From NCBI GenBank assembly GCA_036500145.1, contig DASYCO010000077.1, forward strand, positions 18,294 to 82,293: DNA of 64,000 nucleotides, in the 5' to 3' direction. Made by a program: the position numbers and the translations under genes. Numbering within the stretch: the stretch's first letter is position 1; each line of letters begins with the position of its first letter. Shown here piece after piece: positions 2,390-39,398 of this stretch. The notes beneath the pieces were generated by a model that saw only the letters and a program-made list of their open reading frames with translations, searched no databases and was not told the DNA's origin. The stretch is from Alphaproteobacteria bacterium. Its GTDB lineage: Bacteria > Pseudomonadota > Alphaproteobacteria > SMXQ01.

Positions 2390-2399
2390 AAAAGCGCCC

Positions 2400-3158: not shown

Positions 3159-3484
3159 GGAACTTCGTGATGCAACGCCCCGAGGACCTGGAAAATTTCG
3201 CCGTGCACCTGCGCATCTTCGGCAAGGTGCAGGGCGTCGGCTTTCGCGCCTGGGCGCAGGAGCAGGCCGACAAGAAATCCCTGCGCGGCTGGGTGCGCAA
3301 CCGCAGCGATGGTTCGGTCGAGGTCGTCTTCGTCGGCCATGCCCATACGCTGGATGCGATGGTGACGCTGTGCCGCAAGGGGCCGGCCGGCGCGGAAGTG
3401 AGCCGCGTCACGCGCATTCCCGGCGAATACCGTCCGGACGAGACGGAAGTGCCGCCGGGCTTCCAGCAGTTCCCGACCGTCTAG
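3155..3484 (+). CDS. acyP: Acylphosphatase
   Basis: VxGxVQGVGFR and GWVRNxxDGSVE motifs. ATG overlaps the ATP12 stop (ATGA). An alternative start is ATG 3170. Confidence 0.8.
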   Translation: MRNFVMQRPEDLENFAVHLRIFGKVQGVGFRAWAQEQADKKSLRGWVRNRSDGSVEVVFVGHAHTLDAMVTLCRKGPAGAEVSRVTRIPGEYRPDETEVPPGFQQFPTV

Positions 3485-3487
3485 CCT

Positions 3488-4258: not shown

Positions 4259-4334
4259 CTCCCTTGCGAAGGGTCGGCCGATTTGGTATTCCCCACGCTT
4301 CCGATTGGCAATCCTAAATTGTCGATTATTCCCT

Positions 4335-4421
4335 GCGGTCGTGGCGGAATTGGTAGACGCGCAGCGTTGAGGTCGCTGTGGGGGAAACCTCGTGGAAGTT
4401 CGAGTCTTCTCGACCGCACCA
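4335..4421 (+). tRNA. tRNA-Leu (anticodon GAG)
   Basis: 87 nt. Acceptor stem GCGGTCG/CGACCGC, discriminator A, encoded CCA. D-arm GTGGCGGAATTGGTAGAC. Anticodon loop TTGAGGT. Long variable arm typical of tRNA-Leu. Confidence 0.9.
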
Positions 4422-4531
4422 TACTAGGCATTAGGCCCGTGAACGCTCGTTCCGGGCTTTGATTTTCTGGCCCCCGTCGCCCTAAACCCCATATGGGGGT
4501 TCTGGGCGCGCGTCGAAAGAGAGCCGACGCC

Positions 4532-5965: not shown

Positions 5966-5982
5966 CAGGACGGAGATCGACC

Positions 5983-6663
5983 ATGCCGACCATTCTCGTC
6001 ACCGGCGCCAACCGCGGCCTCGGCCTGGAGTTCGCCCGGCAATATGCCGCCGACGGCTGGCGCGTCATCGCCACTTGCCGCGATCCTGCGAAGGCCGGCG
6101 AGCTGAAGGCGCTGCCCTCGGTCGAGGTCCATGCCCTCGACGTCGCCGACATCGGGGCTGGGGCGAAGCTCGCGTCGTCGCTGGCCGGCACGCCCATCGA
6201 CCTTCTGCTCAACAACGCCGGCGTCTATGGCGCGCGCCAGCAGGCGCTGGGCAACCTCGACGCCGAGGACTGGCTGAACGTGCTGCGCGTCAACAGCGTG
6301 GCGCCGCTCAAGCTGGCCGAAGCCTTTCTGCCGCACTTGCGTGCCGGCAAGGGCAAGACGGCGGCCTTCGTCACCAGCCTGATGGGCAGCATCGCCGACA
6401 ACGGAAGCGGGCGCTTCTACGCCTACCGTTCGAGCAAGGCGGCGCTCAACGCGGCGGTCAAGAGCTTCGCCGTCGATACGGCGGCCGACGGGCTGATCGC
6501 CGTCCTGCTGCATCCCGGCTGGGTGCAGACCGACATGGGCGGCCCTGGCGCGCCGGTCACGCCGAAGGAGAGCATCGCCGGCATGCGCAAGGTCTTGGCC
6601 GGCCTCAAGGCTCAGGACAGCGGCCGCTTCTTCGCCTATGACGGCAAGGCGCTGCCTTGGTAG
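5983..6663 (+). CDS. SDR-family short-chain dehydrogenase (C-factor/CsgA-like)
   Basis: TGANRGLG Rossmann motif, NNAG, YxxSK catalytic pair. 226 aa. Confidence 0.8.
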   Translation: MPTILVTGANRGLGLEFARQYAADGWRVIATCRDPAKAGELKALPSVEVHALDVADIGAGAKLASSLAGTPIDLLLNNAGVYGARQQALGNLDAEDWLNVLRVNSVAPLKLAEAFLPHLRAGKGKTAAFVTSLMGSIADNGSGRFYAYRSSKAALNAAVKSFAVDTAADGLIAVLLHPGWVQTDMGGPGAPVTPKESIAGMRKVLAGLKAQDSGRFFAYDGKALPW

Positions 6664-6691
6664 TTTGATTCTTGAGGGTGCCGCCGCCCGC

Positions 6692-8092
6692 ATGGAGAGC
6701 ATGATTCGTAAGTTGCGTTTGCCGGTCCTGATCACCGGCCTGGCTGTCATCGCCGCCGCCGGGCTCGTCGCCATGCCGACGCCGGCCGGCGTCCAGCCCG
6801 AGATGATGCGCGCCGCAGCCCTGGTGCTGGTCGCGCTGGCGCTCTTCGCCACCAACGCCCTGCCGGGCCATATCAGCGCCGTCGCCTTTCTCACCTTCGG
6901 CATGCTGTGCGCCGTGGCTCCGGCCGAGACGGTGTTCGCCGGCTTCTCCTCGACGGCGGTCTGGCTGGTCTTCGGCGGATTGATCGTCGGCGTCGCCATC
7001 CGCGCCACCGGCCTTGGCGAGCGCATGGCGCTGCAGCTGATGCGCATGCTGGGCACGTCCTACCTGCAGATCATCGGCGGCATCATGATCGCCTCAATGC
7101 TCTTTTCCTTCATCATGCCGGCGAGCCTGGGGCGCGTCGTCATCCTCATGCCGATCATGCTGTCGCTCGCCGAGAAGCTCGGTTTTCCGATTGGCAGCAA
7201 GGGCCATGCGGGCCTGGTGGTCGCGGCCGGCTTCGGCACGCTCATTCCGGCATTCACGATCCTGCCGGCCAACGTGCCGAACATGGTGCTGGCGGGCGCG
7301 GCGGAGACGACCTACGGCCTGCACCTGTCCTACGGCAGCTATGCCTTGCTTCATGCGCCTATGAGCGGGCTGGGCAGCGCGCTCATCATCTTCGCGGTGA
7401 TCATGCTGATGTTCAGGGACACGCCGAAATCCGTCACGACTCTAGCGTCGGCCGAACGGCGTCCCTGGTCGGCCGACGAGAAGAAGCTGTCCTGGATCCT
7501 CGGCATCTCGCTCGTGCTGTGGATGACGGACGGCTGGCACGGCATTTCGCCGGCCTGGGTCGGCATGGCGGGCGGCCTCGCCTGCATGCTGCCGCGCATC
7601 GGCGTCCTGCCGCCGAGCGCCTTCAACGAGAAGGTGCAGTTCGGCGGCATGTTCTATGTGGCGGGCGTGCTCGGCCTCGGCGCCGTCGTGGCGCAAAGCG
7701 GGCTCGGCACGGCCTTGGGCCATGCGCTGATGCAGGCGCTCGACCTGCAGCCCGGCGAGACGGCGCGCAATTTCGTCTCCCTGATCCTGCTCTACACGTT
7801 GAGCGGGCTCATCACGACCATGCCGGCCTTGCCCGCCGTGCTCACGCCGCTCGGCAACGAGCTGGCGCAGGCGACGGGTTTTCCGCTGCTGACGGTGCTG
7901 ATGCTGCAGGTCATCGGCTTCTCCAGCATCCTGTTGCCCTACCAAATGGCGCCGATGGTCTTGTCGTTGCAGATGGGGCGCCTATCTTACGTCAATGGCG
8001 TCAAGGCGACCTTTGCAGTGACGCTTTCTTGCCTCCTGTTGCTGACGCCGCTGAATTATCTCTGGTGGCGGTTCCTCGGATATCTTTCGTAA
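6692..8092 (+). CDS. DASS/SLC13 (ArsB/NhaD-superfamily) anion permease
   Basis: Polytopic membrane protein of about 465 aa with an internally repeated hairpin architecture typical of DASS permeases. Start uncertain (6638, 6692 or 6701). Confidence 0.55.
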   Translation: MESMIRKLRLPVLITGLAVIAAAGLVAMPTPAGVQPEMMRAAALVLVALALFATNALPGHISAVAFLTFGMLCAVAPAETVFAGFSSTAVWLVFGGLIVGVAIRATGLGERMALQLMRMLGTSYLQIIGGIMIASMLFSFIMPASLGRVVILMPIMLSLAEKLGFPIGSKGHAGLVVAAGFGTLIPAFTILPANVPNMVLAGAAETTYGLHLSYGSYALLHAPMSGLGSALIIFAVIMLMFRDTPKSVTTLASAERRPWSADEKKLSWILGISLVLWMTDGWHGISPAWVGMAGGLACMLPRIGVLPPSAFNEKVQFGGMFYVAGVLGLGAVVAQSGLGTALGHALMQALDLQPGETARNFVSLILLYTLSGLITTMPALPAVLTPLGNELAQATGFPLLTVLMLQVIGFSSILLPYQMAPMVLSLQMGRLSYVNGVKATFAVTLSCLLLLTPLNYLWWRFLGYLS

Positions 8093-8529
8093 TGCCCCTG
8101 CATCTCGTCAAAATGGCGGTCGGCGCCGAATCGCTCGAACATCTCGCCGCCTGGCAGAAAACCCGCCTGGCGGCGATCAAGGCCGAACGCGGCAAGTCGA
8201 TGCTGATCCACAAAACGCGCAATTATCCCAAGCGCGCCGAGGAGATTCTCGCTGGCGGCTCGATCTATTGGATCATCAAGGGCTTTATCCGCGTGCATCA
8301 GCGCATCCTGGGATTTGAGCGTGTCACGGACGCCGAGGGCAAGCCGCGCTGCGAAATCCACTATTCGCCGAAGCAAATCCGCACGGTGCCTGTGGCACAC
8401 AAGCCGATGCAGGGCTGGCGCTACATGGAAGACGAAGCCGCGCCGCGCGACCTGACCGGCAAGGGCGACGTGACGGCCGACATGCCGCCGGAAATGCTGG
8501 CGGAACTGCGCAAGCTCGGGCTGCTCTAG
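8092..8529 (+). CDS. DUF1489-family conserved hypothetical protein
   Basis: 146 aa. ATG overlaps the upstream stop (TAATG). N-terminus MPLHLVKMAVGAESLEHL resembles the alphaproteobacterial DUF1489 family. The supplied 540-aa ORF 6907..8529 is an out-of-frame read-through of the permease gene plus this gene. Confidence 0.5.
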   Translation: MPLHLVKMAVGAESLEHLAAWQKTRLAAIKAERGKSMLIHKTRNYPKRAEEILAGGSIYWIIKGFIRVHQRILGFERVTDAEGKPRCEIHYSPKQIRTVPVAHKPMQGWRYMEDEAAPRDLTGKGDVTADMPPEMLAELRKLGLL

Positions 8530-8563
8530 CGCGGCCGCGACGGGGGCTGCGCGCCTCGTCGCC

Positions 8564-11500
8564 TTGGGCCATACTCCTGCCATGAGCGCCTTCGTGGACT
8601 TGCCGACGCTGGCCAAGACGGGCAACGCGCAATGGAGCGCCGTCGAGGCGGCCTACCGGGCGGATGAAGCGGCCTGCGTCGCGGCCTTGCTGCGCGCGTC
8701 GCCGTTCGATCCTGCCGCCACGGAACGCGTCGCCACGAAGGCGCGCGAGCTGGTCGCAGGCGCCCGTGCGCGCAAGGACCAGGCGGGGCGCATGGACGCC
8801 TTCCTGCGCGAATTCGGCCTGTCGAGCCGCGAAGGCGTGGCGCTGATGTGCCTCGCCGAAGCGCTGCTGCGGATCCCCGATGTCGACACGGCCGACCGCC
8901 TGATTCGCGAGAAGCTCGCCGACGGCGACTGGGAGCGTCATCTCGGCAAGAGTGAATCGCTGCTGGTCAACGCCTCGACCTACGGCTTGATGCTGACCGG
9001 CAAGCTGGCGCATTGGGGGAACGGCGATGAGGGCGATCTCTTCGGCCTCTTCCGCCGCCTTGCGGCACGCAGCGGCGAACCCATCGTCCGCGAAGCGGTC
9101 GGTGCGGCCATGCGCATCCTTGGCCGCCAGTTCGTCATGGGCCGCACCATGGACGAGGCCATGGAACGGGCGCGGGCGCAGATGGCGCGCGGCTACCGCC
9201 ACTCGTTTGACATGCTGGGCGAGGAAGCCAAGACCCAGCGCGCCGCCGACCGCTATTTCGAGGCTTACCGCAACGCCATCGCCGCGCTGCGCGGATTGGC
9301 CGGCGGCGACCTGGCCAGCGCGCCGTCGATCTCGGTAAAGCTGTCGGCGTTGCATCCGCGCTACGAATGGGCGCAGGGAGACGTTTGCGTGCCCGCTCTG
9401 GCCGCGCGTCTGCGCGCGCTGGCGTCGCTGGCGCGCGAAACCGGCGTCGCGCTCACCGTGGACGCTGAAGAGGCCGACAGGCTATTGCCGTCGTTGGCGG
9501 TGTTCGAGCAGGTCGCTGCCGATCCGCAGCTGAAAGGCTGGGACGGGCTCGGTCTCGCCGTGCAGGCCTATCAGAAGCGGGCGCCGGCGGTGATCGATTG
9601 GCTGGCCGACCTTGCGCGGCGCGCAGGCCGGCGCATCCCGGTGCGTTTGGTCAAGGGCGCCTATTGGGACAGCGAGATCAAGCGCGCGCAGGAGCGGGCG
9701 TTGGCCGGCTATCCCGTCTTCACCCGCAAGGCCTCGACGGATCTGTCCTATCTCGTCTGTGCCGCCCGATTGTTCGCTTCGCCCAGGGCCTTCTATCCGC
9801 AGCTCGCCAGCCACAATGCGCAGACCGTCGCGGCGGTGCTGGAACTGGCCGGCGAATTGGGAAAGGGGCCAAAGCGCCCGTTCGAATTTCAGCGGCTGCA
9901 TGGCATGGGCCGGCCGCTCTACGGCCAGCTGGTTGGGCCTGACGCGCAGGGCTATCCCTGCCGTGTCTATGCGCCGGTCGGCAGCCATGAAGATCTGCTG
10001 CCCTATCTGGTGCGTCGCCTGCTCGAGAATGGCGCCAACAGCTCCTTCGTGCATCGGCTGAGCGACGAAGACCTGCCCATCGAGCGGTTGACCGCCGATC
10101 CCGTGGCGACGGTCCGCGCGACGTCGCCGGTGGCCCATCCTGGAATTCCCTTGCCGCGGGATCTCTATGCGCCGACGCGGCTGGCGAGCTTTGGGGTCGA
10201 TCTCTCCGACCCAGCGGCATTGCGCCGCTTGGCCGACGAGATGGCTCGGGCCCTCGACAAGCCATGGCAAGCCGCGTCCTTGATCGACGGCAAGGCGCAA
10301 GATGGCCCGACGCATGCAGTGCGTGATCCGGCCGACCGCCGGCGCATCGTCGGCGCGGTCGCTCCGGCGACATTCGACGACATGCAACGCGCCTTGGCGG
10401 CAGCGGTCGCAGGGCAGCGGGCGTGGGCGATGCGGTCTGTCGCGGAGCGCGCGGCGATCCTCGAAGCCGCCGGCGACCTGGTCGAGCGCGACCGCGCGGC
10501 CTTGATGGCGCTCTGCGTGCGCGAGGCCGGCAAGACCTTAGCCGACGCAGCGTCGGAAGTGCGTGAGGCGGCGGACTATTGCCGCTATTACGCCGCCGAG
10601 GCGCGCCGCAGCCTTGCGACGCGCCCCTTGCCGGGGCCGACCGGCGAGGAGAACCGGCTGGAGATGCACGGACGCGGCGTCTTCGCTTGCATCAGCCCAT
10701 GGAATTTTCCGTTGGCGATCTTCACCGGCCAAGTCGTCGCGGCGCTCGTGGCCGGCAATGCGGTGATCGCCAAGCCTGCCGAGCAGACGCCGCTGGTCGC
10801 CGCGGCGGCCGTGCGGCTTCTGCATGAAGCGGGCATCCCTGCCGGCGCGCTGCATCTGCTGCCCGGCAGCGGCAGGACCATCGGCGCGGCGCTCGTCGCG
10901 GACGCGTGCATCGCAGGCGTCGCCTTCACCGGTTCGACGGAAGTCGCCAAGGGCATCGCCCAGGCCCTGGCGGCGCGCGACGGCGCGCTGGCGCCGCTGA
11001 TCGCCGAGACGGGCGGGCAGAACGCGATGATCGTCGACTCTTCGGCCTTGCCCGAACAGGTGACGGCCGATGTCCTGGTTTCGGCCTTTCAGTCGGCGGG
11101 CCAGCGCTGCTCCAGCCTGCGCGTGCTGTTCCTGCAGGAAGACATTGCCGATAGATTAATCGCCATGCTGGCGGGCGCGGCGGCGGAACTGGTCGTCGGC
11201 GATCCGGCGCGGCTGGCCACCGATGTCGGTCCCATGATCGACGAGCAGGCGCGCGACGCCATGGAGGCGCATGGCCGCCGCATGGCGGCTGCCGGCCGGC
11301 TGCTGTTTCAGGCGCCGCTTAGTCCCAGCGCCGTCCAGCAGGGCGCGTTCTTCGCGCCGCGCGCCTACGAGATACCCTCGCTCGACCTGCTGACGCGCGA
11401 GGTGTTCGGCCCGATCCTGCATGTGATTCGCTGGCGGGCGGGAGAGCTGGAGCGCGTCGCGGACGCGGTCGCCGCCACGGGCTACGGCCTGACGCTCGGC

Positions 11501-11767
11501 ATTCACAGCCGCATCGCCGAAACGGCCGAGATCGTCCGCGCGCGGCTCGGCGTCGGCAATTCCTACGTGAACCGCAACATGATCGGCGCGGTGGTCGGCG
11601 TGCAGCCGTTCGGCGGCGAAGGCCTGTCGGGCACGGGGCCGAAGGCGGGCGGTCCGCATTACCTGCCGCGCTTCGCGCTGGAGCGCACGGTGACGGTGAA
11701 CAGCGCAGCGGCCGGCGGCAATGCCGGCCTGCTCAGCCTCGACGACGAAGGCGGGAAGACGCCCTAG
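8564..11767 (+). CDS. putA: Bifunctional proline dehydrogenase/L-glutamate gamma-semialdehyde dehydrogenase PutA
   Basis: About 1060 aa. PRODH TIM barrel followed by an aldehyde dehydrogenase domain (catalytic Cys in GQRCSS, ETGGQNAMIVD-type motifs). No N-terminal RHH DNA-binding domain. The start may be the ATG at 8582. Confidence 0.9.
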   Translation: MGHTPAMSAFVDLPTLAKTGNAQWSAVEAAYRADEAACVAALLRASPFDPAATERVATKARELVAGARARKDQAGRMDAFLREFGLSSREGVALMCLAEALLRIPDVDTADRLIREKLADGDWERHLGKSESLLVNASTYGLMLTGKLAHWGNGDEGDLFGLFRRLAARSGEPIVREAVGAAMRILGRQFVMGRTMDEAMERARAQMARGYRHSFDMLGEEAKTQRAADRYFEAYRNAIAALRGLAGGDLASAPSISVKLSALHPRYEWAQGDVCVPALAARLRALASLARETGVALTVDAEEADRLLPSLAVFEQVAADPQLKGWDGLGLAVQAYQKRAPAVIDWLADLARRAGRRIPVRLVKGAYWDSEIKRAQERALAGYPVFTRKASTDLSYLVCAARLFASPRAFYPQLASHNAQTVAAVLELAGELGKGPKRPFEFQRLHGMGRPLYGQLVGPDAQGYPCRVYAPVGSHEDLLPYLVRRLLENGANSSFVHRLSDEDLPIERLTADPVATVRATSPVAHPGIPLPRDLYAPTRLASFGVDLSDPAALRRLADEMARALDKPWQAASLIDGKAQDGPTHAVRDPADRRRIVGAVAPATFDDMQRALAAAVAGQRAWAMRSVAERAAILEAAGDLVERDRAALMALCVREAGKTLADAASEVREAADYCRYYAAEARRSLATRPLPGPTGEENRLEMHGRGVFACISPWNFPLAIFTGQVVAALVAGNAVIAKPAEQTPLVAAAAVRLLHEAGIPAGALHLLPGSGRTIGAALVADACIAGVAFTGSTEVAKGIAQALAARDGALAPLIAETGGQNAMIVDSSALPEQVTADVLVSAFQSAGQRCSSLRVLFLQEDIADRLIAMLAGAAAELVVGDPARLATDVGPMIDEQARDAMEAHGRRMAAAGRLLFQAPLSPSAVQQGAFFAPRAYEIPSLDLLTREVFGPILHVIRWRAGELERVADAVAATGYGLTLGIHSRIAETAEIVRARLGVGNSYVNRNMIGAVVGVQPFGGEGLSGTGPKAGGPHYLPRFALERTVTVNSAAAGGNAGLLSLDDEGGKTP

Positions 11768-12396
11768 AAGGCATCCTTGATGCCGTCGATGACGTACTGC
11801 ACGGCGAGAGCCGCCAGCACGATGCCGAGCACGCGGCCGATCACGTTGGTGCCGGTTTCGCCGAGCAGCTTGGTCATGCGGTTGGCGGCGAGCAGCACGG
11901 CCAGCATGATCGCCATGACGAGAACCAGCGCGGCCAGCACGGCGCTCTGCAGCAGCAGGCTGTGGCCGGCGCGGCCCATCAGCAGCACCGTCGAGGTGAG
12001 CGCGCCGGGGCCGGCGATCAGCGGGATCGCCAGCGGAAACACGGAGATGTCGCGCTTGTGCTCGGCCTCGATCTCCTCGCGCTCGGTGGTGCGGCGCAGG
12101 GGCGTCCCGCGCGCGAACAGCATGTCGATGGAGATCAGCAGCAGCAGGATGCCGCCGGCGATGCGGAAGGCGGCGATCGAGATGCCGAGCCCGCGCAGGA
12201 TCAGGTCGCCGGCGAAGGCGAAGATCAGCAGGATCGCGAGAGCGAGCAGGGAGCCGCGCAGGGCCATCAGGCGGCGATAGTCGGCGCTCTCGCCGCGCGT
12301 GATGGCGATGAAGGTCGGCCCCATGCCCGGCGGGTCGAGGACGACGAAGAAGGTCACGAAGGCGGTGAGGGCGATGTCGAGCAGCGCGGGGGTCAT
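11764..12396 (-). CDS. MarC-family (UPF0056) membrane protein
   Basis: 210 aa with 6 TM segments. N-terminal MarC signature FFVVLDPPG. 4-nt convergent overlap with putA. Confidence 0.75.
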   Translation of the reverse strand: MTPALLDIALTAFVTFFVVLDPPGMGPTFIAITRGESADYRRLMALRGSLLALAILLIFAFAGDLILRGLGISIAAFRIAGGILLLLISIDMLFARGTPLRRTTEREEIEAEHKRDISVFPLAIPLIAGPGALTSTVLLMGRAGHSLLLQSAVLAALVLVMAIMLAVLLAANRMTKLLGETGTNVIGRVLGIVLAALAVQYVIDGIKDAF

Positions 12397-12462
12397 GGCG
12401 TCAGTCTAATCCCGCGGCGCGGGGCGGCCCAGGGCTTTAGCGCTGGACATGCCGCTCCGTGC

Positions 12463-13488
12463 TCACTTGCTCCAGGATGCAAGCGCGGCTTCGAGCCGGG
12501 CGACGTCGCGGGCCGCCGGCAGGCCGAAGCGCAGCCAGTCGGGCTGTTCGGCGAAGGTGCGCGTCAGGATGCCCTGGCGGCCGAGATGGTCGTACAGGGC
12601 GGCGGCTTGCGGATGGCGGACGAGCTGGAACAGCGGCGCGCCGCCGGCCGAGGCGAGGCCGGCGCGGCGCAGCAGGCCGGCGAGGCTCGCGCTTGCCAGC
12701 GCCAGGCGCTCGCGCGTGTCAGCCGCCCAGGCACGGTCGGCCAGGGCCTGGGCGCCGATGGCCTGCGCCGGACCGCTCACCGCCCAGGGGCCGAGCGCCT
12801 CGCGTAGTCGCGTGGCCAAGTCGGTAGGGGCGAGGGCGAAGCCGAGGCGTAGTCCCGCCAGGCCGTAGAACTTGCCGAAGCTGCGCAGCAGCACGAGTCC
12901 GGCCATGCCGGCGCGGGCGGACAGGCTGATCTCGGGCTCGGCGTCGGCGAAGGCTTCGTCGACGACGAGCCAGCCGTCGCGCGCCGCGAGGTCGTCGGCC
13001 AGCGCCAGCAGCGTCTCGGGCGCGATGCGCCGCCCGTCCGGGTTGTTCGGGTTGGCGAGCACGACGACTTGCGCCGCCGCGGCCGTCGCCAGTTCGTGGA
13101 TGATCGTCACTTCATGGCCGGCGGCGCGCCAGTTCGGCGCATACTCGCCGTAGGTCGGCGCCAGCACGGCGACCTTCGCGGGCGGCAACAGGCGCGGCAG
13201 CCATTGCAGGATCGCCTGGGTGCCGGGGGCCGCTACGATGGCGGCGCGTTCGCCGACGCGGTAGCAGCTGGCGGCGGCGGAGATCAGCGCGTCCTGCATG
13301 GCCTGCTGCGGCAGGCGATGCCACAGCGCCGGGTCCAGCGGCATGAAGGGGTAGGGCTGCGGATTGATGCCGGTCGAGAGGTCGAGCCAGCCGCCGGAAA
13401 TGCCGTTGCTGGCGGGGCTGCCGAAGCGCGTGGCCGCGCCGGCGAGGTCGCCGCCATGGACCGGCAGGTCGTCCGGTGCGTCGGTCAC
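12463..13488 (-). CDS. cobD: Threonine-phosphate decarboxylase CobD/CobC (class I/II aminotransferase fold)
   Basis: HGGDL N-terminus; the PLP lysine is in SFGKFYGLAGLRLG; aminotransferase I/II fold. GTG start overlaps the upstream MFS stop (GTGA). The supplied 710-aa ORF is a chimera of this gene and an out-of-frame overlap with the MFS gene. Confidence 0.75.
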   Translation of the reverse strand: MTDAPDDLPVHGGDLAGAATRFGSPASNGISGGWLDLSTGINPQPYPFMPLDPALWHRLPQQAMQDALISAAASCYRVGERAAIVAAPGTQAILQWLPRLLPPAKVAVLAPTYGEYAPNWRAAGHEVTIIHELATAAAAQVVVLANPNNPDGRRIAPETLLALADDLAARDGWLVVDEAFADAEPEISLSARAGMAGLVLLRSFGKFYGLAGLRLGFALAPTDLATRLREALGPWAVSGPAQAIGAQALADRAWAADTRERLALASASLAGLLRRAGLASAGGAPLFQLVRHPQAAALYDHLGRQGILTRTFAEQPDWLRFGLPAARDVARLEAALASWSK

Positions 13489-25010: not shown

Positions 25011-27323
25011 ATGCTCTCGCGTAATTTGGAACAGACCCTGCACCGCGCGCTCTCGTTCGCCAATCAGCGTCGGCACGAGTTCGCCACTCTCGAGCATCTC
25101 CTCCTGGCGCTCACCGAGGACCAGGACGCCGTCGCCGTCATGCGCGCCTGCGGCGTCGACCTCGCCAAGATCCGCGAAGAGCTGGTCGCCTACATCGACA
25201 ACGAGCTGGCCAGCCTGGTCATGGAGAAGTCGGAGGACGCCAAGCCGACGGCGGGCTTCCAGCGCGTGCTGCAGCGCGCCGCGATCCATGTCCAGTCGTC
25301 CGGCCGCGAGGAAGTGACCGGCGCCAACGTGCTGGTCGCGCTGTTCTCCGAACGCGAGAGCCATGCCGTCTACTTCCTGCAGGAGCAGGAGATGACGCGC
25401 CTCGACGCGGTCAACTACATCTCGCACGGCATCGCCAAGGTGTCGGCCCGCAGCGAGCGTCGCCCGGTGGGCGGCGCCGAGGAAGAGGCTAAGCCGGAGA
25501 AGGTCGTGAAGAAGGGCCATGAGGCCCTCGACGCCTACTGCGTCAACCTCAACAAGAAGGCGGCCAACGGCAAGATCGATCCGCTGATCGGCCGCGCCGA
25601 CGAGGTCGAGCGCACGATCCAGATCCTCTGCCGGCGCACCAAGAACAACCCGCTCTACGTGGGCGATCCCGGCGTCGGCAAGACCGCCATCGCTGAGGGC
25701 CTGGCGCGGCGCATCGTGCACGCCGAAGTGCCCGAGGTGCTGAAGACCGCGACGATCTACAGCCTCGACATGGGCTCGCTGCTCGCCGGCACGCGCTATC
25801 GCGGCGACTTCGAGGAGCGCATCAAGGCGGTCATCACGGAGCTGCAGGACCAGGACAACGCCATCCTGTTCATCGACGAGATCCACACGGTGATCGGCGC
25901 CGGCGCGACTTCCGGCGGCTCGATGGACGCGTCCAACCTGCTCAAGCCGGCGCTCGCCAACGGCAGCCTGCGCTGCATCGGCTCGACCACCTACAAGGAA
26001 TACCGCAGCTACTTCGAGAAGGACCGCGCGCTGGTGCGCCGCTTCCAGAAGATCGACGTCAACGAGCCGTCGGTCGAGGACGCGATCAAGATCCTCAAGG
26101 GCCTCAAGCCCTACTACGAGAAGCACCACAACGTGCGCTACACCGACGACGCCATCGTCGCCGCGGTGAACCTCTCGTCGCGCTACATCAACGACCGCAA
26201 GCTGCCCGACAAGGCGATCGACGTGATCGACGAAGTCGGCGCGGCGCAGATGCTGGTGCCCGAAGGCAAGCGCAAGAAGGTCATCAACGTGAAGGACGTG
26301 GAGGCGGTGGTCGCCAAGATCGCCCGCATCCCGCCCAAGAGCGTCAGCAACACCGACAAGGAAGGCCTGCGCAACCTCGACCGCGACCTCAAGGCGGTCG
26401 TGTTCGGCCAGGACCATGCCATCGAGGCGCTCGCCAGCTCGATCAAGCTGTCGCGCGCCGGCCTGCGCGAAGGCGACAAGCCGATCGGCAGCTACCTGTT
26501 CTCCGGCCCGACCGGCGTCGGCAAGACGGAAGTGGCGCGCCAGCTCTCGCGCATCATGGCCATCGAGCTGATCCGCTTCGACATGTCGGAGTACATGGAG
26601 CGGCACACGGTGTCGCGCCTGATCGGCGCGCCGCCGGGCTACGTCGGCTTCGACCAGGGCGGCTTGCTGACCGACGCCATCGACCAGCACCCGCACGCGG
26701 TCCTGCTGCTCGACGAGATCGAGAAGGCCCACCCGGACCTGTTCAACATTCTGCTGCAGGTGATGGACCACGGCAAGCTGACGGACCACAACGGCAAGAT
26801 CGTCGACTTCCGCAACGTCATCCTGATCATGACGACGAACGCGGGCGCCGCCGACATGGCCAAGCCGGCCATCGGCTTCGGCTCCAGCGTGCGCACGGGC
26901 GACGACGAAGAGGCGATCAAGCGGATGTTCACGCCGGAATTCCGCAACCGTCTCGACGCGGTAATCCCGTTCGCCGGACTTTCTCCGGCGATCATCGCCC
27001 AGGTGGTCGACAAGTTCGTCATCGAGCTGGAAGAGCAGCTGGCCGACCGCAACGTGCACATCGTGCTCGACCAGGCGGCGCGCGACTGGCTGGCGGTGAA
27101 GGGCTACGACCCGCTGTTCGGCGCCCGTCCGCTCGGCCGCGTGATCCAGGAGCACATCAAGCGCCCGCTCGCCGACGAGCTGCTGTTCGGCAAGCTGGCC
27201 AAGGGCGGCTCCGTCACGGTGACGATCACCGACGACAAGCCGAGCTTCGTGATCGTCGAGGGCGTGCCGAAGCCCGCTGGGGGCAAGCCGAAGCGCCCGA
27301 AGGAGCCGGCTCTCGTCGAATAG
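25011..27323 (+). CDS. clpA: ATP-dependent Clp protease ATP-binding subunit ClpA
   Basis: 770 aa. Clp N domain, two AAA+ modules with Walker A GDPGVGKT / GPTGVGKT, and the sensor and ClpP-binding IGF-type loop. Confidence 0.95.
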
Positions 27324-27345
27324 GAAAACGATAGATATTGATGAA

Positions 27346-27383
27346 TTAGGGCTTCAGTCCAAACTGGAGCCCTAATTTTTTGT
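27346..27383 (+). terminator. Terminator-like hairpin between clpA and the KAP gene
   Basis: TTAGGGCTTCAG-TCCAAA-CTGGAGCCCTAA (12-bp stem, 1 mismatch) followed by TTTTTTGT. Only about 14 nt separate the T-tract from the KAP ATG (27397), with a GGGGG RBS. Confidence 0.6.
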
Positions 27384-27396
27384 CTGGGGGGTGAAT

Positions 27397-28773
27397 ATGA
27401 GATTGACGCCGAAGATTCCGAAAATTGGAGAATCTGAAGGGTTTAGTAATTCTGATCTATTCGAACTCAAAGGGTTTGGTGAACGGTTATCGAACCTAAT
27501 TATAAAAATAAATGAGCCTCTAGTAATCGTACTTGATGGTGCATGGGGCAGCGGAAAATCCACCTTTATTAAGCAATGGTCTGGAGTGCTGAGAGAGCAG
27601 AGAACTCCAGTAATAATTTTTGACGCATTTGAAAATGATTATCACGAGGACGCCTTTTTCACGCTGGCGAGTCAGGTGATTGAGCAAGCTCAGAAAATCC
27701 TGGGCAAAACACGAACGACAAAACAATTTATCGAACAAACTAAAAAGGTTGGTCGTGTGCTCGTACCATTAACTGCAAAGCTGATGATACGTGCTGCATC
27801 TTTAGGTGCTTTATCGGCTTCAGATCTTACGGAAAGTTCCGACGAAATTATGAAAACAATTTCGGGTGATGTGTCCGAAACGATAGAGAGAGTACTAGAC
27901 GATAAAATTAAAAAAATTGAATCAGATAAATTAGCGATTGAAAGTTTTAGAAGTCATTTAGCGCGCCTGGCTGGCGCTATGAGTGAAAAGCTTGCTGACG
28001 TCACCGATAAAGCTTCGCACCTTCCACCCTTGGTAATTGTCATTGATGAATTAGATAGGTGTCGGCCACCTTTTTCGATCAATCTTCTTGAGAGAATTAA
28101 ACATCTCTTTTCAGTCGAGGGTGTTTGTTTTGTGCTCGTAACTCATTTGCCCCAGTTGGCTGTTGCTATTAGGGGATCTTATGGCCAGGACATGAATGCC
28201 GAACGTTATCTTGAAAAATTTTATCACTTAAAACTATCTTTGCCGGATGATACCCGAACAGGAGGCCCTAAAAAGAAATATGAAAAATACGTAGACTATT
28301 TGTGGTCTTCCATGGAGCTGGCAACAGATGATCCCCATTGGGACGCGCTTTTGCAGGGAGGTATTGTTAACTTTTCTTATTCGTATTCACTTTCATATAG
28401 AACAATTGAGAGAGTTGTCTCCTGTGTTGCTCTTGTTACTGCGGCAACATCTAAGAGAAATTTACGTTGGCCTCCACTCATTGTTGGTTTGTGTGTGATG
28501 AAAGTAGAAAATCCAAGTCTGTATGAGCGCGTAAAAAACGGGGTGCTTGAATGGGAAGATGCATTCAAATTTTTAAATATGACGCCATGGAATGATCAAG
28601 CCGCATACGATTTTTATTATCGATCATGGAAATTTGCGCTGTCTAAAAATCTATCTAACGAAGGCTGGGAGGAGCAGTACTTTAGTGAGCTTCATAGGTA
28701 CAATTTAAGGCGGGAGAGAATAATTCCATTTATGATCGGATATATTGAAGAGCTTTTCCAAACGAAGTCGTAG
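27397..28773 (+). CDS. KAP-family P-loop NTPase (PifA-like), soluble
   Basis: 458 aa. KAP Walker A LDGAWGSGKSTF and the KAP-specific Walker B VIVIDELDRC. No clear TM insert. AT-rich codon usage, foreign to the host. Confidence 0.85.
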   Translation: MRLTPKIPKIGESEGFSNSDLFELKGFGERLSNLIIKINEPLVIVLDGAWGSGKSTFIKQWSGVLREQRTPVIIFDAFENDYHEDAFFTLASQVIEQAQKILGKTRTTKQFIEQTKKVGRVLVPLTAKLMIRAASLGALSASDLTESSDEIMKTISGDVSETIERVLDDKIKKIESDKLAIESFRSHLARLAGAMSEKLADVTDKASHLPPLVIVIDELDRCRPPFSINLLERIKHLFSVEGVCFVLVTHLPQLAVAIRGSYGQDMNAERYLEKFYHLKLSLPDDTRTGGPKKKYEKYVDYLWSSMELATDDPHWDALLQGGIVNFSYSYSLSYRTIERVVSCVALVTAATSKRNLRWPPLIVGLCVMKVENPSLYERVKNGVLEWEDAFKFLNMTPWNDQAAYDFYYRSWKFALSKNLSNEGWEEQYFSELHRYNLRRERIIPFMIGYIEELFQTKS

Positions 28774-28778
28774 TTTTT

Positions 28779-30026
28779 TTAAGGCTCGTCCTCGAAGCGG
28801 CGGCCTGATTTATCGATCTGAGACACGACGCCGGAGATCACCTCTCCGGCGTCGTTCTTTTTGAACGGGCCGTGCGCGATCAGGCGCTCGGCCTTGCGTT
28901 CCAGTTCGCCTTGCTCGGCGCGCACGAAGCGCGCGACGGCCTGCTTGAAGCCGTCGTCGGCGATCCAGTGGGCGCTCCAGGTCGCGGCGGGCAGGTAGCC
29001 GCGGCCGAGCTTGTGGCTGCCGCCGCCGGCGCCGGCCTCGACGCGGGCGAGCCCACGCTCGATGGCGAAGTCGATGGCCTGGTAGTAGCAGACCTCGAAA
29101 TGCAGGCAGGGATGCTCTTCGAGCGCGCCCCAGTTGCGGCCGTAGAGCGCGTCCTGGCCGATCAGGTTGATGGCGCCGGCGATGGGGCGGCCCTGGCGGT
29201 AGGCGATCACCAGCAGCACGTCGTCGGCCATCGTCTGGCTGAGGCGGGTGAAGAAGTCCGGCTCGAGATAGGCCTGGCCCCACTTGCGGCCGGCGGTGTC
29301 GATGTAGAACTCGTAGAAGGCGTCCCAGTCGGCCGGCGTGATGGCGTCGCCGGTCAAGCGGCGAATCTCGATGCCGGGGCTGACGGCCTCCAGCCGCTCC
29401 TTGCGCAGGTTCTTGCGCTTGCGCGACGAGAGCGCGCCGAGGAAGTCGTCGAAGCTGCCGTAGCCGGCGTTGTGCCACTGGAACTGCTGGCCTTCGCGGA
29501 CGAGAAAGCCATGGCCGGCGAGCAGGTCGGCTTCGGGCTTGGTCAGGAAGTTGACGTGCAGGGACGACACCTTGTGCCGCCGCGCGACTTCGATCAGGGC
29601 GCCGGCCAGAGCGTCGGCCGTGCCGGCCGGCGCTTCTGGATGGAGCAGCAGGCGCGGCCCGGTCACAGGCGTGAAGGGCACGGCGGCGAGCAGCTTGGGA
29701 TAGTAACGTCCGCCGGCTCGTTCCCAGGCGTCGGCCCAGGCCCAGTCGAAGACATATTCGCCGTAGCTGTGGCCCTTCAGGTAGAGCGGCACCGCGCCGA
29801 CGATGCGGCCGGTGCCGTCCTGCGCCACCACATGCTGCGGCTGCCAGCCGCTGTCGCGCGTCGCCGAGCCGCTGGCTTCCGCCGCGAGCAGGAAGGCATG
29901 GGAGACGAAGGGATTGCTGCCGCTGGCGTGGGGGCGGGCGCAGGCGTCCCAGTCGGCGGTGGCGACTTCGGCGATGGAGGGCACCACCATCGCCGTCAAA
30001 TCGGTCTTGCCGTCGCCGTCCGCCAT
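28779..30026 (-). CDS. DUF482/COG3146 GNAT-fold N-acyltransferase-like protein
   Basis: About 415 aa with FemAB-like/GNAT-like architecture. Conserved in Proteobacteria as a predicted N-acyltransferase. Start ambiguous (30026, 30041 or 29990). The stop codon TAA lies in the AT-rich islet junction. Confidence 0.55.
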   Translation of the reverse strand: MADGDGKTDLTAMVVPSIAEVATADWDACARPHASGSNPFVSHAFLLAAEASGSATRDSGWQPQHVVAQDGTGRIVGAVPLYLKGHSYGEYVFDWAWADAWERAGGRYYPKLLAAVPFTPVTGPRLLLHPEAPAGTADALAGALIEVARRHKVSSLHVNFLTKPEADLLAGHGFLVREGQQFQWHNAGYGSFDDFLGALSSRKRKNLRKERLEAVSPGIEIRRLTGDAITPADWDAFYEFYIDTAGRKWGQAYLEPDFFTRLSQTMADDVLLVIAYRQGRPIAGAINLIGQDALYGRNWGALEEHPCLHFEVCYYQAIDFAIERGLARVEAGAGGGSHKLGRGYLPAATWSAHWIADDGFKQAVARFVRAEQGELERKAERLIAHGPFKKNDAGEVISGVVSQIDKSGRRFEDEP

Positions 30027-30033
30027 CTGCGCT

Positions 30034-31863
30034 TCACTCATTCCTGAACCGGGCGGGGACAGCTTGCCGCAAGCCGTCGAACAGGGCCAGCAGCCAGATT
30101 CGGAGGCCGTCGATGCGGTTGCGGGCCGAGGGCGGCGGCGCAACGTCGAGGCCGACGCGGATCACCTGGCCATGCTCCACCACGCGCACGATCAGGTCGA
30201 CGCCGCCGACATGCAGGCGGCGGCCCGGAACAGGCGCGCCGCGCAGGGCGAGGCGCAGGAAGCGGCCGAGCGGCATGTGGCGCAGCACCCTGGGAACGCG
30301 GAACTCGTAGAGGCTGGCGACGGCGCCCAGCTCGGCCTGGCCGTCGAGCACGAACTCGCCGAGCATTTCCTCCGTCGCCGAGCGGCCGCTGCGGATGCCG
30401 GCGGCGAAGAAGCGGTCGAGGGTGGTCATCTGGTCCGACGGCGCGATGACGAGCACGTAGTCGTTGGGCTCCAGCCGCTGGACGGCCGCCGCCGCGAGCA
30501 GAGCGCCGTCGCGGATGATGGTGATGATGCTGACGCCTTCCGGCATGACGAGGCGCTCGAGCCGGCGGCGGGTCGCCATGCTGAAGGGCTGCACCGTGTA
30601 GGCCGCCATGTCGCGGCCGGCGCTGCCCGGCAGGTCCAGTTCGGCGCGCAGCGGCGGCGGCGGGCGCGGCGGCAGTTCGAGGCCGAGCCAACGGGCCACG
30701 GGCGCCACGGTCCAGCCCTGCACGCTCATGGAGAAGAGGACGACGACGAAGGCGACGGAGAACACCACCATGCCGCCCTGGATGCCCGACAGCACCGGGA
30801 TGCTGGCGAGGAAGATCGGCACCGCGCCGCGCAGCCCGACCCAGGAGATGAACGCGATCTCGCGCTTGCTGAAGCGGAAGGGGATGAGGCAGAGCGCCAC
30901 GGCCAGCGGACGGGCGACGAAGACCAGCGTCAGCGCGATGGCGATGGCGGGGACGAGGTCCGGCAGCAGCGCCTTCGGCGTGACCAGCAGGCCGAGCATG
31001 AGGAACATGAGGATCTGGCTGAGCCAGGCGAGCCCGTCGCTGAAGCGGCTGATGAGCTGCGTGGCGCGGTGGCGCCGGCTGCCGAGCAGGAAGCCGACCA
31101 GGTAGATCGCCATGTAGCCGCTGGCGCCGATGCTTTGCGCCGTGGCGAAGATCAGCATGGCGCCGGCCATGGCCAGGATCGGATAGAGGCCGGGCGCGAT
31201 GTCGAGCCGGTTGACGAGGCGCAACAGCGCCAGGCCGCCGAGCACGCCGAGCGTCGCGCCGCCGGCGATCTGCAGCAGGAACATGCCGACGAAGTTGTCC
31301 AGCAGGTCCCAGCTCACGGTCGTGGCGCCCGAGCGCAGCAGCTCGACGCAGAGCACGGTGAGGAAGATCGCCATCGGGTCGTTGAGGCCCGATTCGACTT
31401 CCAGCGTCGCGCCGACGCGGTTCTTCAGGTGCATGCCGCGGAGGTGCAGCAGGAAGAACACGGCCGCCGCGTCGGTCGAGGCGACGACCGAGCCGATCAG
31501 CATGCCCTGCAGCCAGTGCAGGCCGAGCGCCCAGGCCGCCGTCAGGCCGACCAGGATCGCGGTCACCAGCACGCCGAGGGTGGCGAGCGACAGGGCGGGG
31601 GCCCAGGCGACGCGCAGGTTGCCGCGCGTCGTCTTGAGGCCGCCGTCGAACAGGATGATCGCCAGCGTCAGGCTGCCGACGAGGTAGGCGACGTGGAAGT
31701 CGCCGAAATGGATGCCGCCCGGGCCGTCTTCGCCGGCCAGCATCCCGAGCGCCAGGAAGACCAGCAGCAGAGGGGCGCCGATGCGCGAGGAGACCAGCCC
31801 GGCGAGGATGCTGAGAACCACCAGGCCGGCGCCGATCAGGATGAGGTGATGGGCGAATTCCAT
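30034..31863 (-). CDS. K+/H+ (cation:proton) antiporter, CPA1/NhaP2 type with C-terminal TrkA-C regulatory domain
   Basis: 609 aa. About 13 TM helices, then a soluble C-terminal domain resembling TrkA-C/RCK. Confidence 0.8.
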   Translation of the reverse strand: MEFAHHLILIGAGLVVLSILAGLVSSRIGAPLLLVFLALGMLAGEDGPGGIHFGDFHVAYLVGSLTLAIILFDGGLKTTRGNLRVAWAPALSLATLGVLVTAILVGLTAAWALGLHWLQGMLIGSVVASTDAAAVFFLLHLRGMHLKNRVGATLEVESGLNDPMAIFLTVLCVELLRSGATTVSWDLLDNFVGMFLLQIAGGATLGVLGGLALLRLVNRLDIAPGLYPILAMAGAMLIFATAQSIGASGYMAIYLVGFLLGSRRHRATQLISRFSDGLAWLSQILMFLMLGLLVTPKALLPDLVPAIAIALTLVFVARPLAVALCLIPFRFSKREIAFISWVGLRGAVPIFLASIPVLSGIQGGMVVFSVAFVVVLFSMSVQGWTVAPVARWLGLELPPRPPPPLRAELDLPGSAGRDMAAYTVQPFSMATRRRLERLVMPEGVSIITIIRDGALLAAAAVQRLEPNDYVLVIAPSDQMTTLDRFFAAGIRSGRSATEEMLGEFVLDGQAELGAVASLYEFRVPRVLRHMPLGRFLRLALRGAPVPGRRLHVGGVDLIVRVVEHGQVIRVGLDVAPPPSARNRIDGLRIWLLALFDGLRQAVPARFRNE

Positions 31864-37028: not shown

Positions 37029-39398
37029 TTATTGGCGTGCCATCGCGACGCGCGCCAATGCCTGTTCTTCTTCTGCCGTGTCTTGAAACAGTTGACCTGA
37101 TACGTCGACGGTGACCGTCAAGATCGTGCCGGTGAATTCGAACGGCGGTCCGTAGAGGGCGCTGACGGGGGAGGCCGGATTATTGCCGACGGTCACGCCG
37201 CTGCCGATGCCGAGAGCAAGCGGAACCGTGTAGGGCAATGCCATTTCGCCAACGAGCTTGTGATTGATGTAAAGCTGGGCCTTGCCGGGCGTTCCTTTGC
37301 CTTTCTTGATATCGGGCTTGCCGGTCGGTTCGAACTCGTATCTCAAACTCGCCTTGCCTTCCGGCACGGCGACGTTCGATTCGACATGAAATTCTTCTGC
37401 GCCGACGTAATTGTGGACGTAGTGAAGTTTTCCATCTTTCACGAAAAGCGTATAGCCGCCGACATTGCCGCCGTGGCACATCAAAACGCCTTCGGCGCCG
37501 CCCTTCGGAATATCCACCTCGGCGGTGATGCTGTGCGCGCGGTTTAAAAGCTTGGCCGCGATGTTCTCGGGAATGCCTTGTGTGTGCGGATAATAGACGT
37601 AGGTCTGGCGATCTTTCGTGAGCTGAGGACGTTCATCGCCGAAACGGAGGGTGCCGCGACTGTCGAGTGGCAGGACGTTGTATTTTCCCGCCTCCGTATA
37701 CCAGGTCGCGATCATCTCGATCAGCTTTTCGGGTTTCTCTTTCGCGAGATCCTTCGACTCGGTCGGGTCGGCCGACAGGTCGTAAAGCTCCCAGCCTTTG
37801 GCGTCGAGCTCGCGGAGCTTTTCTTCCGTCAATGTCGCCATCCCGAAGAAAACGCCGGCTTCCGCAAATGACGGGCCAGGAAACGGGCAAACCGCGCGCC
37901 AGCCGTCGTGATAGATCGAACGGTGCGCGAACATTTCGAAATATTGGGTCTTATGCAGGCTTTCCGCTTTCCCTGCATTGAATGTGTGGAAGAAGCTCAC
38001 GCCCTCGATCGGCGCTTGAGTGACGCCGCGGATTTGCGCCGGCGGCTCGATGCCCAGCGCGGCGAGAGTCGTCGGCATCATGTCGATGGCATGGGCATAT
38101 TGGTGGCGAATTTCCCCCTTGGCCTTGATTCCTTTGGGCCAGTGGACGAGGAACGGATCGGAAATGCCGCCACGATAAGTCTCTCGCTTCCATCTCCGGA
38201 ATGGCGTGTTGCCGGCGTAAGTCCAGCCCCATGCATAATGGTTGAAGTATTTGGGGCCGCCTAAGTTATCGATTGCGGCGAGGTTTTGCGTCAAGTCGTC
38301 CGGGACGTTATTGAAAAATTTGTTCTCGTTGACCGATCCGTTCGGTCCGCCCTCGGAACTCGCGCCGTTGTCGCTGATCACCATGATCAGCGTATTGTCG
38401 AGTTCGCCGAGTTTTTCGAGAAAATCCAGCAGGCGGCCGATCTGGTGATCGGTGTATTCGAAGAAGCCGGCGAACACCTCCATCATGCGGGCATAGAGCT
38501 TCCGTTCATCGGCTGAAAGCTTGCTCCAATCCTGCACGTCGGGGTCGTGACGCGACAATTCGGCATGCGCGGGCATGATCCCGAACTCCTTTTGCCGCTT
38601 GAAGGTCTTTTCGCGATAGGCGTCCCACCCGTCGTCGAATTTGCCTTTGTATTTGTCGATCCATTCCTTTGGCGCGTGATGGGGGGCGTGATTGGCGCCG
38701 GGCGCGAAATACATGAAGAACGGCTTGTCCGGCGCGACCTGCTTAAGGTCGGCTATGAAGCCGATGGCTTTTTCCGCGAGGTCTTCGCTGAGATGGTAGC
38801 CTTGTTCGGGCGTCTTCGGCGGCGCGACCTGGTGATTGTCGTAGACCAGGTCCGGATAATATTGATGAGTGTCGCCGCCGAGAAAGCCGTAATACCGTTC
38901 GAAGCCGCGGCCAAGCGGCCAGCGGTCGTAAGGTCCGGCGGCGCTGATCTGTTCCGATGGCGTCAGGTGCCACTTGCCGATGCAATAGGTCGCATATCCG
39001 TTTTGCACGAGCGTTTCCGAAAGAAAGCCGTTCTCGAACGGAATGGCGCCGTTGCTTCCCGGAAAGCCGGTCGATCCTTCGGTGATGCAGGCCATGGCGT
39101 TGGAGTGGTGGTTCCTGCCGGTCATGATGCATGACCGCGTCGGCGAACAAAGAGCCGTCGTATGCATGTTGGTGTAAAGCAGGCCGTTCTTGGCGAGCCT
39201 ATCTAAGTTCGGGGTGTTGATGGGCGATCCGTAGCAGCCGAACTGTCCAAAGCCGGTATCGTCCATGACGATATAAAGGACGTTCGGCATGCCTTCCTTC
39301 GTGCGCTTGGGGGCAGGCCAAGCGGATTCGGATTCGCTAACCGTGCGGCCCATGCGGCCAGAAAATGCGGTACCGGATTTATATTCCTTGAGAGCCAT
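37029..39398 (-). CDS. Arylsulfatase (Cys-type sulfatase family), large 789-aa form
   Basis: Sulfatase signature CSPTRSCIMTGR (C-x-P-x-R) and metal-binding DD / GKWH motifs, plus a C-terminal extra domain. The gene's GC content (about 56-58%) is below the flanking 68-70%. Confidence 0.85.
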   Translation of the reverse strand: MALKEYKSGTAFSGRMGRTVSESESAWPAPKRTKEGMPNVLYIVMDDTGFGQFGCYGSPINTPNLDRLAKNGLLYTNMHTTALCSPTRSCIMTGRNHHSNAMACITEGSTGFPGSNGAIPFENGFLSETLVQNGYATYCIGKWHLTPSEQISAAGPYDRWPLGRGFERYYGFLGGDTHQYYPDLVYDNHQVAPPKTPEQGYHLSEDLAEKAIGFIADLKQVAPDKPFFMYFAPGANHAPHHAPKEWIDKYKGKFDDGWDAYREKTFKRQKEFGIMPAHAELSRHDPDVQDWSKLSADERKLYARMMEVFAGFFEYTDHQIGRLLDFLEKLGELDNTLIMVISDNGASSEGGPNGSVNENKFFNNVPDDLTQNLAAIDNLGGPKYFNHYAWGWTYAGNTPFRRWKRETYRGGISDPFLVHWPKGIKAKGEIRHQYAHAIDMMPTTLAALGIEPPAQIRGVTQAPIEGVSFFHTFNAGKAESLHKTQYFEMFAHRSIYHDGWRAVCPFPGPSFAEAGVFFGMATLTEEKLRELDAKGWELYDLSADPTESKDLAKEKPEKLIEMIATWYTEAGKYNVLPLDSRGTLRFGDERPQLTKDRQTYVYYPHTQGIPENIAAKLLNRAHSITAEVDIPKGGAEGVLMCHGGNVGGYTLFVKDGKLHYVHNYVGAEEFHVESNVAVPEGKASLRYEFEPTGKPDIKKGKGTPGKAQLYINHKLVGEMALPYTVPLALGIGSGVTVGNNPASPVSALYGPPFEFTGTILTVTVDVSGQLFQDTAEEEQALARVAMARQ

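Follow-up and report, generated by a model that had tools for sequence, protein, structure and literature searches.

A lone soluble KAP-family NTPase gene of foreign composition between clpA and a FemAB-like gene in an alphaproteobacterial genome

A gene whose composition is foreign to its genome, and which stands alone between two housekeeping genes, raises the question of what it encodes, how it came to its place and what it may do there. Such a gene lies in the stretch of alphaproteobacterial DNA analysed here (the window: 64,000 nucleotides of contig DASYCO010000077.1, assembly GCA_036500145.1, positions 18,294 to 82,293), in which an AT-rich islet at 27324-28778, with 40% G+C (GC), takes up the entire interval that separates the stop codons of the convergent genes clpA and FemAB_like. 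An earlier note had described the islet as a sharply bounded insert with a lone soluble nucleoside triphosphatase (NTPase) of the KAP family, and had proposed that it is a phage-exclusion or abortive-infection module. The analysis reported here leads us to conclude, with high confidence, that the islet is a single foreign gene, acquired horizontally, and that its product belongs to the KAP family and to the phage defence candidate family PDC-S20. A role of this one protein in anti-phage defence is the reading that we favour, with appreciably less certainty.

Results

A sharply bounded islet with a single gene

The GC content of positions 27324-28782 is 0.404, against 0.677 in positions 1-27323 and 0.669 in positions 28783-64000, which places the islet 9.2 standard deviations below the non-overlapping segments of the same size (z = -9.2; mean 67.3%, standard deviation 2.9%, minimum 56.3%). 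Read in steps of 20 nt, GC falls from 0.6-0.8 to 0.3-0.4 directly past the clpA stop codon (27321-27323) and recovers within some 20-40 nt of the stop codon of the FemAB-like gene (28779-28781). The sharp drop described in the earlier note is therefore real, with borders within about 20 nt of the two stops, but its value of 37% has to be corrected to 40.4% overall; only at third codon positions is a value as low as 0.36 reached in the islet gene, against 0.95 in clpA and 0.90 in the FemAB-like gene. No host-like intergenic DNA remains at either side, since the foreign DNA spans the interval from stop codon to stop codon. A single open reading frame (ORF) with 80 aa or more lies inside the islet, on the + strand (27391/27397-28773), so that the 1.46-kb insert contains exactly one gene, as had been claimed.

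Both junctions of the islet are confirmed by an independent Logan assembly of run SRR11833507, in which a contig of 1731 nt (L082) corresponds to window positions 27166-28896 with 0 mismatches and spans the two borders. The junctions are thus not an artefact of assembly.

A soluble KAP-family protein

The gene (27397-28773, + strand) encodes a P-loop NTPase of 458 aa. Its start codon is placed at ATG 27397 because 70 homologs align with the protein from M1 (consensus MRLTPxEP). The assignment to the KAP family holds in a comparison with the Pfam hidden Markov model PF07693, which matches residues 29-345 with E=2.4e-35 and a score of 122.7 bits, the cut-off being 20. The Walker A (GAWGSGKS, residues 48-55) and Walker B (LVIVIDELDRC, residues 212-222) motifs agree with the KAP patterns GxWGxGKS/T and hhhhD[DE]LDR (Aravind et al. 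2004). In an alignment of 71 sequences, 27 columns are invariant, including W50, G51, G53, K54, D217, D220, R221, C222 and R335; the window protein is one of the 71, and the presence of these residues in it holds by construction. Identity within the family reaches 56-61% in the N-terminal segment and the Walker core, against 27-29% in the insert, the lid and the C-terminal parts.

Most members of the KAP family, although not all, carry transmembrane helices between Walker A and Walker B. In the window protein a helical insert (residues 86-199) replaces them, and a Kyte-Doolittle scan finds no segment of transmembrane grade: the 19-residue mean within the insert does not exceed 1.53, a value reached where K and R are present, and the overall maximum of 1.73 corresponds to a core beta-strand. 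An AlphaFold2 model computed from the family alignment (predicted local distance difference test score 90, predicted template-modelling score 0.85) consists throughout of soluble helices and strands, arranged as a P-loop core, the helical insert (with low confidence at 121-160) and a variable, all-helical C-terminal half (residues 286-458). Hydrophobicity and model thus agree with the earlier statement that no membrane insertion separates the motifs. Furthermore, no nuclease, TIR, deaminase, membrane or other recognisable effector domain is fused to the protein or encoded adjacent to it. The gene is a bona fide member of the KAP family of NTPases, soluble, solitary and of foreign composition.

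A sequence search of the PDB returned only marginal, short matches in the P-loop region (best E=0.0066). By structure, the closest relatives of the model are RdrA and Orc/Cdc6, proteins that assemble into nucleotide-dependent rings.

Relation to catalogued defence families

The search against PADLOC models that the earlier note had suggested leads to a single-gene phage-defence candidate, PDC-S20. Its model PDLC04959 matches residues 1-417 with E=7.7e-79 and 264 bits, over profile positions 1-395 of 464, and three further PDC-S20 models match as well (PDLC04956 with E=2.4e-55). The likeness comprises a near-full-length match, a KAP NTPase core, a similar length (about 450-460 aa) and the organisation as a single gene, with no partner required or present, and there is no structural difference. 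The protein also matches phrog_8614 (E=3e-90), a phage/prophage family with no known function. The phage defence candidates (PDCs), 145 in number, were picked for their embedding in BREX, DISARM or type I restriction-modification loci (bioRxiv 10.1101/2024.01.29.577857). PDC-S20 is thus itself a prediction drawn from such embedding, whereas the window gene is embedded in no defence system and stands alone between housekeeping genes. It is a divergent new member of an already catalogued defence-candidate family, and not a new kind of gene.

Matches to characterised systems (QatA, PifA and, with E=6e-9, mad8) are weak and confined to the domain. In the case of PifA, the factor of the F plasmid that excludes T7 and to which the gene had been linked, the KAP NTPase domain is indeed common to both proteins (PADLOC model E=5e-12, 43 bits), but the match covers profile positions 16-350 of 720 and the similarity is not full-length. 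PifA is much larger than the 458-aa soluble window protein and is membrane-associated; it resembles the role proposed for the window gene in being a single-gene exclusion factor on mobile DNA. QatA, the KAP-type ATPase of QatABCD, matches with E=1e-14 in PADLOC and with 63.8 bits against a cut-off of 600 bits in NCBIfam, the window protein is some 170-190 aa shorter, and no QatB-, QatC- or QatD-like gene is found within 10 kb. RdrA of the RADAR system (PDB 8fnt, 8fnu, 8hr8) shares its fold with the window protein at 12-17% identity, but has about 800-850 aa, against 458, and is partnered with the deaminase RdrB; no RdrB-like gene lies within 10 kb, and no PADLOC RdrA match appears at E<=1.

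A large family of lone genes in varied neighbourhoods

An exhaustive HMMER search of 1.84 billion cluster representatives (at 50% identity) yields 1,562 clusters at E<=1e-30, a number that rises to 7,064 at E<=1e-10. Among the 150 best matches, lengths are mostly about 440-480 aa, and in most cases the match extends over almost the entire protein. Within this family the window protein is alone in its own 50% cluster, with nearest relatives that are 46-47% identical. More distant relatives are carried by about 40 plasmids, none above 60% identity and those listed at 23-31%.

Neighbourhoods were read for twelve homologs, and an all-against-all comparison of the ORFs within 3.5 kb of 10 of them reveals no conserved partner gene. 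The Azospirillum homolog, on a megaplasmid or chromid, has a resolvase, a TIR protein and IS66 nearby; in Azospirillum argentinense CP032331.1 (L163), a small serine recombinase (Resolvase) gene at 7182-7871 adjoins the KAP homolog in divergent orientation, an arrangement that agrees with a 2026 report in which small serine recombinases mark defence genes, KAP NTPases included. One locus holds a SNase-domain gene and an HTH_17 gene, another Mrr_N, a methyltransferase-HNH fusion and EcoEI_R_C, and another an MqsA-like gene, TIR_2 and nSTAND1.

Some homologs lie within about 3 kb of a tRNA gene. In four of the eight chromosomal loci, either the KAP gene itself or a very small island around it is found directly downstream of a tRNA gene, with no intact integrase in view: tRNA-Gln (7816-7889) lies 112 nt upstream in L164, where an 82-aa DUF6538 fragment stands beside the homolog; tRNA-Pro (5738-5814) is followed by HicAB in L166; tRNA-Phe (4932-5005) is followed by three hypothetical genes in L168; and tRNA-Ser (7696-7785) lies directly upstream, in housekeeping surroundings, in L171. 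Such loci suggest decayed integrative islets. The best match labelled as a phage, MK672802 (L167, 'Vibrio phage Va_90-11-286_p16'; 36% identity over 98% of the query), was rejected as such, being a Vibrio chromosomal integron beside thrS-infC-rpmI-rplT (locus 2000-13300): an integrase is followed by at least 12 attC-like repeats (TAACAAA...GGGCGTTA), two of which enclose the KAP homolog as a cassette. KAP is not mentioned in a preprint on defence in integrons.

The GC content of the gene is lower than that of its flanks in 11 of 13 homolog loci, by at least 0.10 in eight, and in several the dip is confined to the gene (0.38 against 0.66 in Nisaea sediminum, for instance); the islet of the window is the most extreme compositional case of the family. 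The lack of a common neighbour, the variety of mobile contexts and the GC dips, taken together, therefore identify the family as accessory cargo that travels as a lone gene and has been captured repeatedly by different routes.

Leader and terminators

The 73-nt leader of the KAP gene is dominated by a terminator-like hairpin (27343-27384, + strand; stem of 15-16 bp, loop of 4 nt, T6; folding free energy -28.2 kcal/mol, z -4.9), which is part of the foreign DNA and leaves 13 nt between its end and the start codon. It resembles an intrinsic terminator serving clpA; the clpA terminator of the closest genome, L001, differs from it in being GC-rich. A purine-rich run, GGGGGG (27386-27391, + strand), which reads like a ribosome-binding site (RBS), is found 5 nt before the ATG. 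Downstream, the stop codons of the KAP and FemAB-like genes are only 5 nt apart, and the only terminator-like element is a GC-rich, perfect 13-bp hairpin with a T-run (28825-28862, + strand; -28.4 kcal/mol, z -6.5), placed antisense within the last 30 or so codons of the FemAB-like gene. This hairpin has the appearance of an intrinsic terminator that would act on + strand transcripts, now those of the KAP gene and perhaps originally those of clpA. If the latter were the case, we conjecture, the ancestral spacer may have measured a few bases, which would explain that no native intergenic DNA is left.

A consensus scan detects no sigma-70-like promoter upstream of the KAP gene. Since a terminator-like hairpin also stands directly upstream, expression is probably low, and the gene may be transcribed mainly by read-through from clpA; in addition, transcription of the FemAB-like gene may run into it in antisense.

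A small RNA of Bradyrhizobiaceae, BjrC68, gives an Rfam match in the leader (27320-27382, + strand) that stays below threshold, with 23.5 bits where the gathering score is 39. We rejected this candidate, the match being driven by the terminator stem, which resembles that of BjrC68 with C-to-U and G-to-A changes; in ten related loci, BjrC68 is not found at the gathering score.

The flanking genes and the same site in relatives

Both flanks are native. On the left, clpS is followed by clpA (25011-27323, + strand), whose product is 90% identical to ClpA of L001 and keeps the conserved lysine- and proline-rich tail. On the right, the FemAB-like gene (28779-30041, - strand; PF04339, E=2e-153) is followed by a Na/H exchanger gene; its 5' end is the one called for the source contig, which gives a protein of 420 aa, the ORF read mechanically extending to 30143, and its product is 65% identical to that of L001. 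The label DUF482, previously given to this neighbour, denotes the same family under a superseded name, FemAB_like being the current one in Pfam. The genes within 10 kb of the KAP gene encode ClpS, ClpA, the FemAB-like protein, the Na/H exchanger, a RidA-like protein and a resistance-nodulation-division (RND) efflux system. The FemAB-like protein ends in GRRFEDEP-TAA in the window and in GRRFEEEP-TAA in L001; its C-terminus and TAA stop are intact and native, which refutes the suggestion that the insertion had supplied the stop codon or trimmed the 3' end of this gene.

The convergent FemAB-like/clpA pair recurs across many Alphaproteobacteria. In none of the 18 syntenic loci with a complete gap, the comparison that the earlier note had called for, is a KAP gene present at this site, and the gaps (0.55-3.4 kb) are host-like in GC. 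They contain a HIT-domain gene in 13 more distant relatives and, in the three nearest genomes, SelO and a TctC-like gene (L001), a DUF2189 gene (L002) or a CoA-transferase (L007). As these contents differ among relatives, the interval is a slot of variable content, in which a KAP gene is a peculiarity of the window's lineage. The SelO-like gene of L001 (7351-8774) is broken up into a pair of ORFs that overlap, 7351-8661 and 8283-8774, possibly through a frameshift, as a pseudogene or by a sequencing error.

Route of arrival

As the earlier note had stated, the islet is accompanied by neither mobility genes nor border repeats: there is no integrase within 10 kb on either side, and no target-site duplications, direct repeats or terminal inverted repeats were found at the borders. 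No tRNA gene lies nearby either, the only one of the window being at 4335-4421, and the islet does not qualify as an integrative island of the tRNA/integrase type. An origin as an integron cassette was also rejected. No attC-like imperfect hairpin is present at the islet, and no R'/R'' core-site match is seen by eye at its borders; only 5 nt separate the two stops, and the hairpin upstream of the gene has a short, perfect stem and a T-run. One 13-mer, ATTGATGAATTAG, is present in two exact copies, at the left border (27337-27349) and in the Walker B codons for IDEL (28042-28054). It could be a recombination scar, but is probably due to chance, since a repeat of this length appears in about 2.6% of islets simulated with a Markov model. 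The observations on the borders would fit an illegitimate insertion, by which a piece of foreign DNA entered a very short tail-to-tail spacer; they would also fit a larger element that has been reduced until one gene was left.

The second-lowest composition of the window is found elsewhere, in a stretch of less strongly reduced GC (0.57-0.60 against 0.67) with a 789-aa sulfatase-family gene (PF00884, E=2e-70) at 37029-39398 on the - strand, which may be another, older acquisition.

Discussion

The KAP gene is, in the interpretation that we consider reasonably probable, a one-protein anti-phage defence gene. Given the match to PDC-S20, no better reading is available than that of a single-gene defence module, and in this respect the proposal of a phage-exclusion or abortive-infection module is retained. 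Abortive infection in particular receives no support. Between an abortive and a direct outcome we would favour neither; the characterised single-gene KAP NTPases (EF_KAP and related), which protect Enterococcus from phages and require Walker B for it, reportedly do not act by abortive infection (PLoS Biol 2026, PMC13552941).

If the gene has this function, a division of labour within the protein can be envisaged. The motor, which binds and hydrolyses NTP, would consist of the N-terminal segment and the Walker A/B core, both conserved, and the variable helical insert and the variable C-terminal half would recognise a trigger made by the phage; the difference in identity between the core and these parts gives a pattern such as a sensor would have. 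Recognition might lead to nucleotide-dependent oligomerisation into a ring, as in RdrA and Orc/Cdc6. As there is neither an effector domain nor a partner gene, the oligomer, or the NTPase activity itself, would then be the effector, which might trap a phage component, remodel it or drain NTP. Defence, trigger, oligomerisation and block of infection are all steps that we infer, and for the individual steps of such a switch our confidence is much lower than for defence as such.

Several points weigh against a defence role or limit what can be said about it. The PDCs are presented by their own authors as candidates, that is, as predictions only (bioRxiv 10.1101/2024.01.29.577857); a literature search found no paper that names PDC-S20 and no experimental protection by a member, and in a study of eight other PADLOC candidates four gave protection. 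The Enterococcus proteins, which have the KAP domain in common with the window protein, have transmembrane helices and a C-terminal region of about 320 aa of unknown function (PMC13552941), and the window protein has neither. Several relatives are found amid plain metabolic or housekeeping genes. With a terminator upstream and no promoter detected, the gene could be poorly expressed or silent, and with no recognisable effector domain the step that blocks the phage or kills the cell is guesswork. Finally, the insertion event itself is deduced from composition and distant synteny, since no near-isogenic empty site was recovered: the best matches in a search with the FemAB-like protein are 65% identical among genome contigs and 59% among metagenome contigs.

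Different explanations of the locus have to be considered in this light. A KAP NTPase may serve ends other than defence, as a selfish, addiction-like maintenance gene of mobile DNA or as a regulator of a host complex. The functional heterogeneity of the KAP family, the doubt voiced about phage exclusion as the primary role of PifA (quoted in PMC13552941), the non-defence neighbourhoods of several homologs and the lack of a known function for phrog_8614 all speak for such a role. Nevertheless, the best profile match is to a family chosen for its embedding inside defence systems, relatives adjoin TIR, toxin-antitoxin and restriction-related genes, and the closest solved fold is that of a defence ATPase, which makes a non-defence role unlikely in our view. 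We consider it quite unlikely that the islet is inert leftover cargo, namely a larger element or island whittled down to one barely expressed gene with no current role. The absence of mobility genes, repeats and att sites would be expected from such a history, as would the hairpin directly upstream and the lack of a promoter-like site, and the L164 homolog, with its tRNA gene and DUF6538 fragment, does resemble a decayed island. The ORF is, however, intact over 458 codons, it retains every family-invariant residue (as it must by construction of the alignment) and a good RBS-like run, and its unameliorated third codon positions (0.36, against at least 0.9 in the genome) point to a recent arrival, which leaves little time for decay.

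That the protein is instead an orphan ATPase subunit of Qat (QatABCD) or RADAR (RdrAB), with partners lost or encoded elsewhere, is suggested by the weak QatA matches and the structural similarity to RdrA, but becomes very improbable in view of an NCBIfam score about one-tenth of the QatA cut-off, a length far below that of QatA and RdrA, the absence of QatBCD-like and RdrB-like genes within 10 kb, and the absence of any neighbour conserved across 10 homolog loci. An assembly chimera, in which AT-rich DNA of another organism was joined into the contig, is suggested by the metagenome-assembled nature of the contig and by the extreme jump in composition, but it is next to impossible, given the separate Logan contig that is identical across both junctions and the fact that the two flanking genes are also neighbours in relatives, which would not be expected of a chimeric join.

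Within the favoured interpretation as a defence gene, a more specific proposal can be formulated for the family, one that we regard as distinctly doubtful when all of its parts are taken jointly. According to it, the soluble PDC-S20 KAP protein without an effector region would be a stand-alone immune protein whose NTPase oligomer is the effector; the family would spread as a bare, promoter-less gene that lands precisely in tail-to-tail junctions without a recombinase encoded by the element; and AT-richness would be kept deliberately, for example so that the gene is subject to xenogeneic silencing until it is needed. This would explain why gene-sized GC dips recur across unrelated genomes.

KAP NTPases are already known to include defence genes; the islet gene does not overturn current views and will hardly surprise the specialist, but it offers a good test case. 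What deserves attention is the clean islet running from stop codon to stop codon, the gene-sized GC dips throughout the family and the absence of transmembrane helices and of an effector region. As a horizontal acquisition the islet is very clean and minimal, one gene with no mobility machinery, and together with the family-wide dips it is a convenient case for the movement and expression of lone defence genes in high-GC hosts. If protection from phages is true, it would provide experimental support for PDC-S20, a family that comprises over 1,500 clusters at the 50% identity level, and it would mean that a KAP NTPase can work without transmembrane helices or a fused effector region, narrowing down where in the protein the activity resides.

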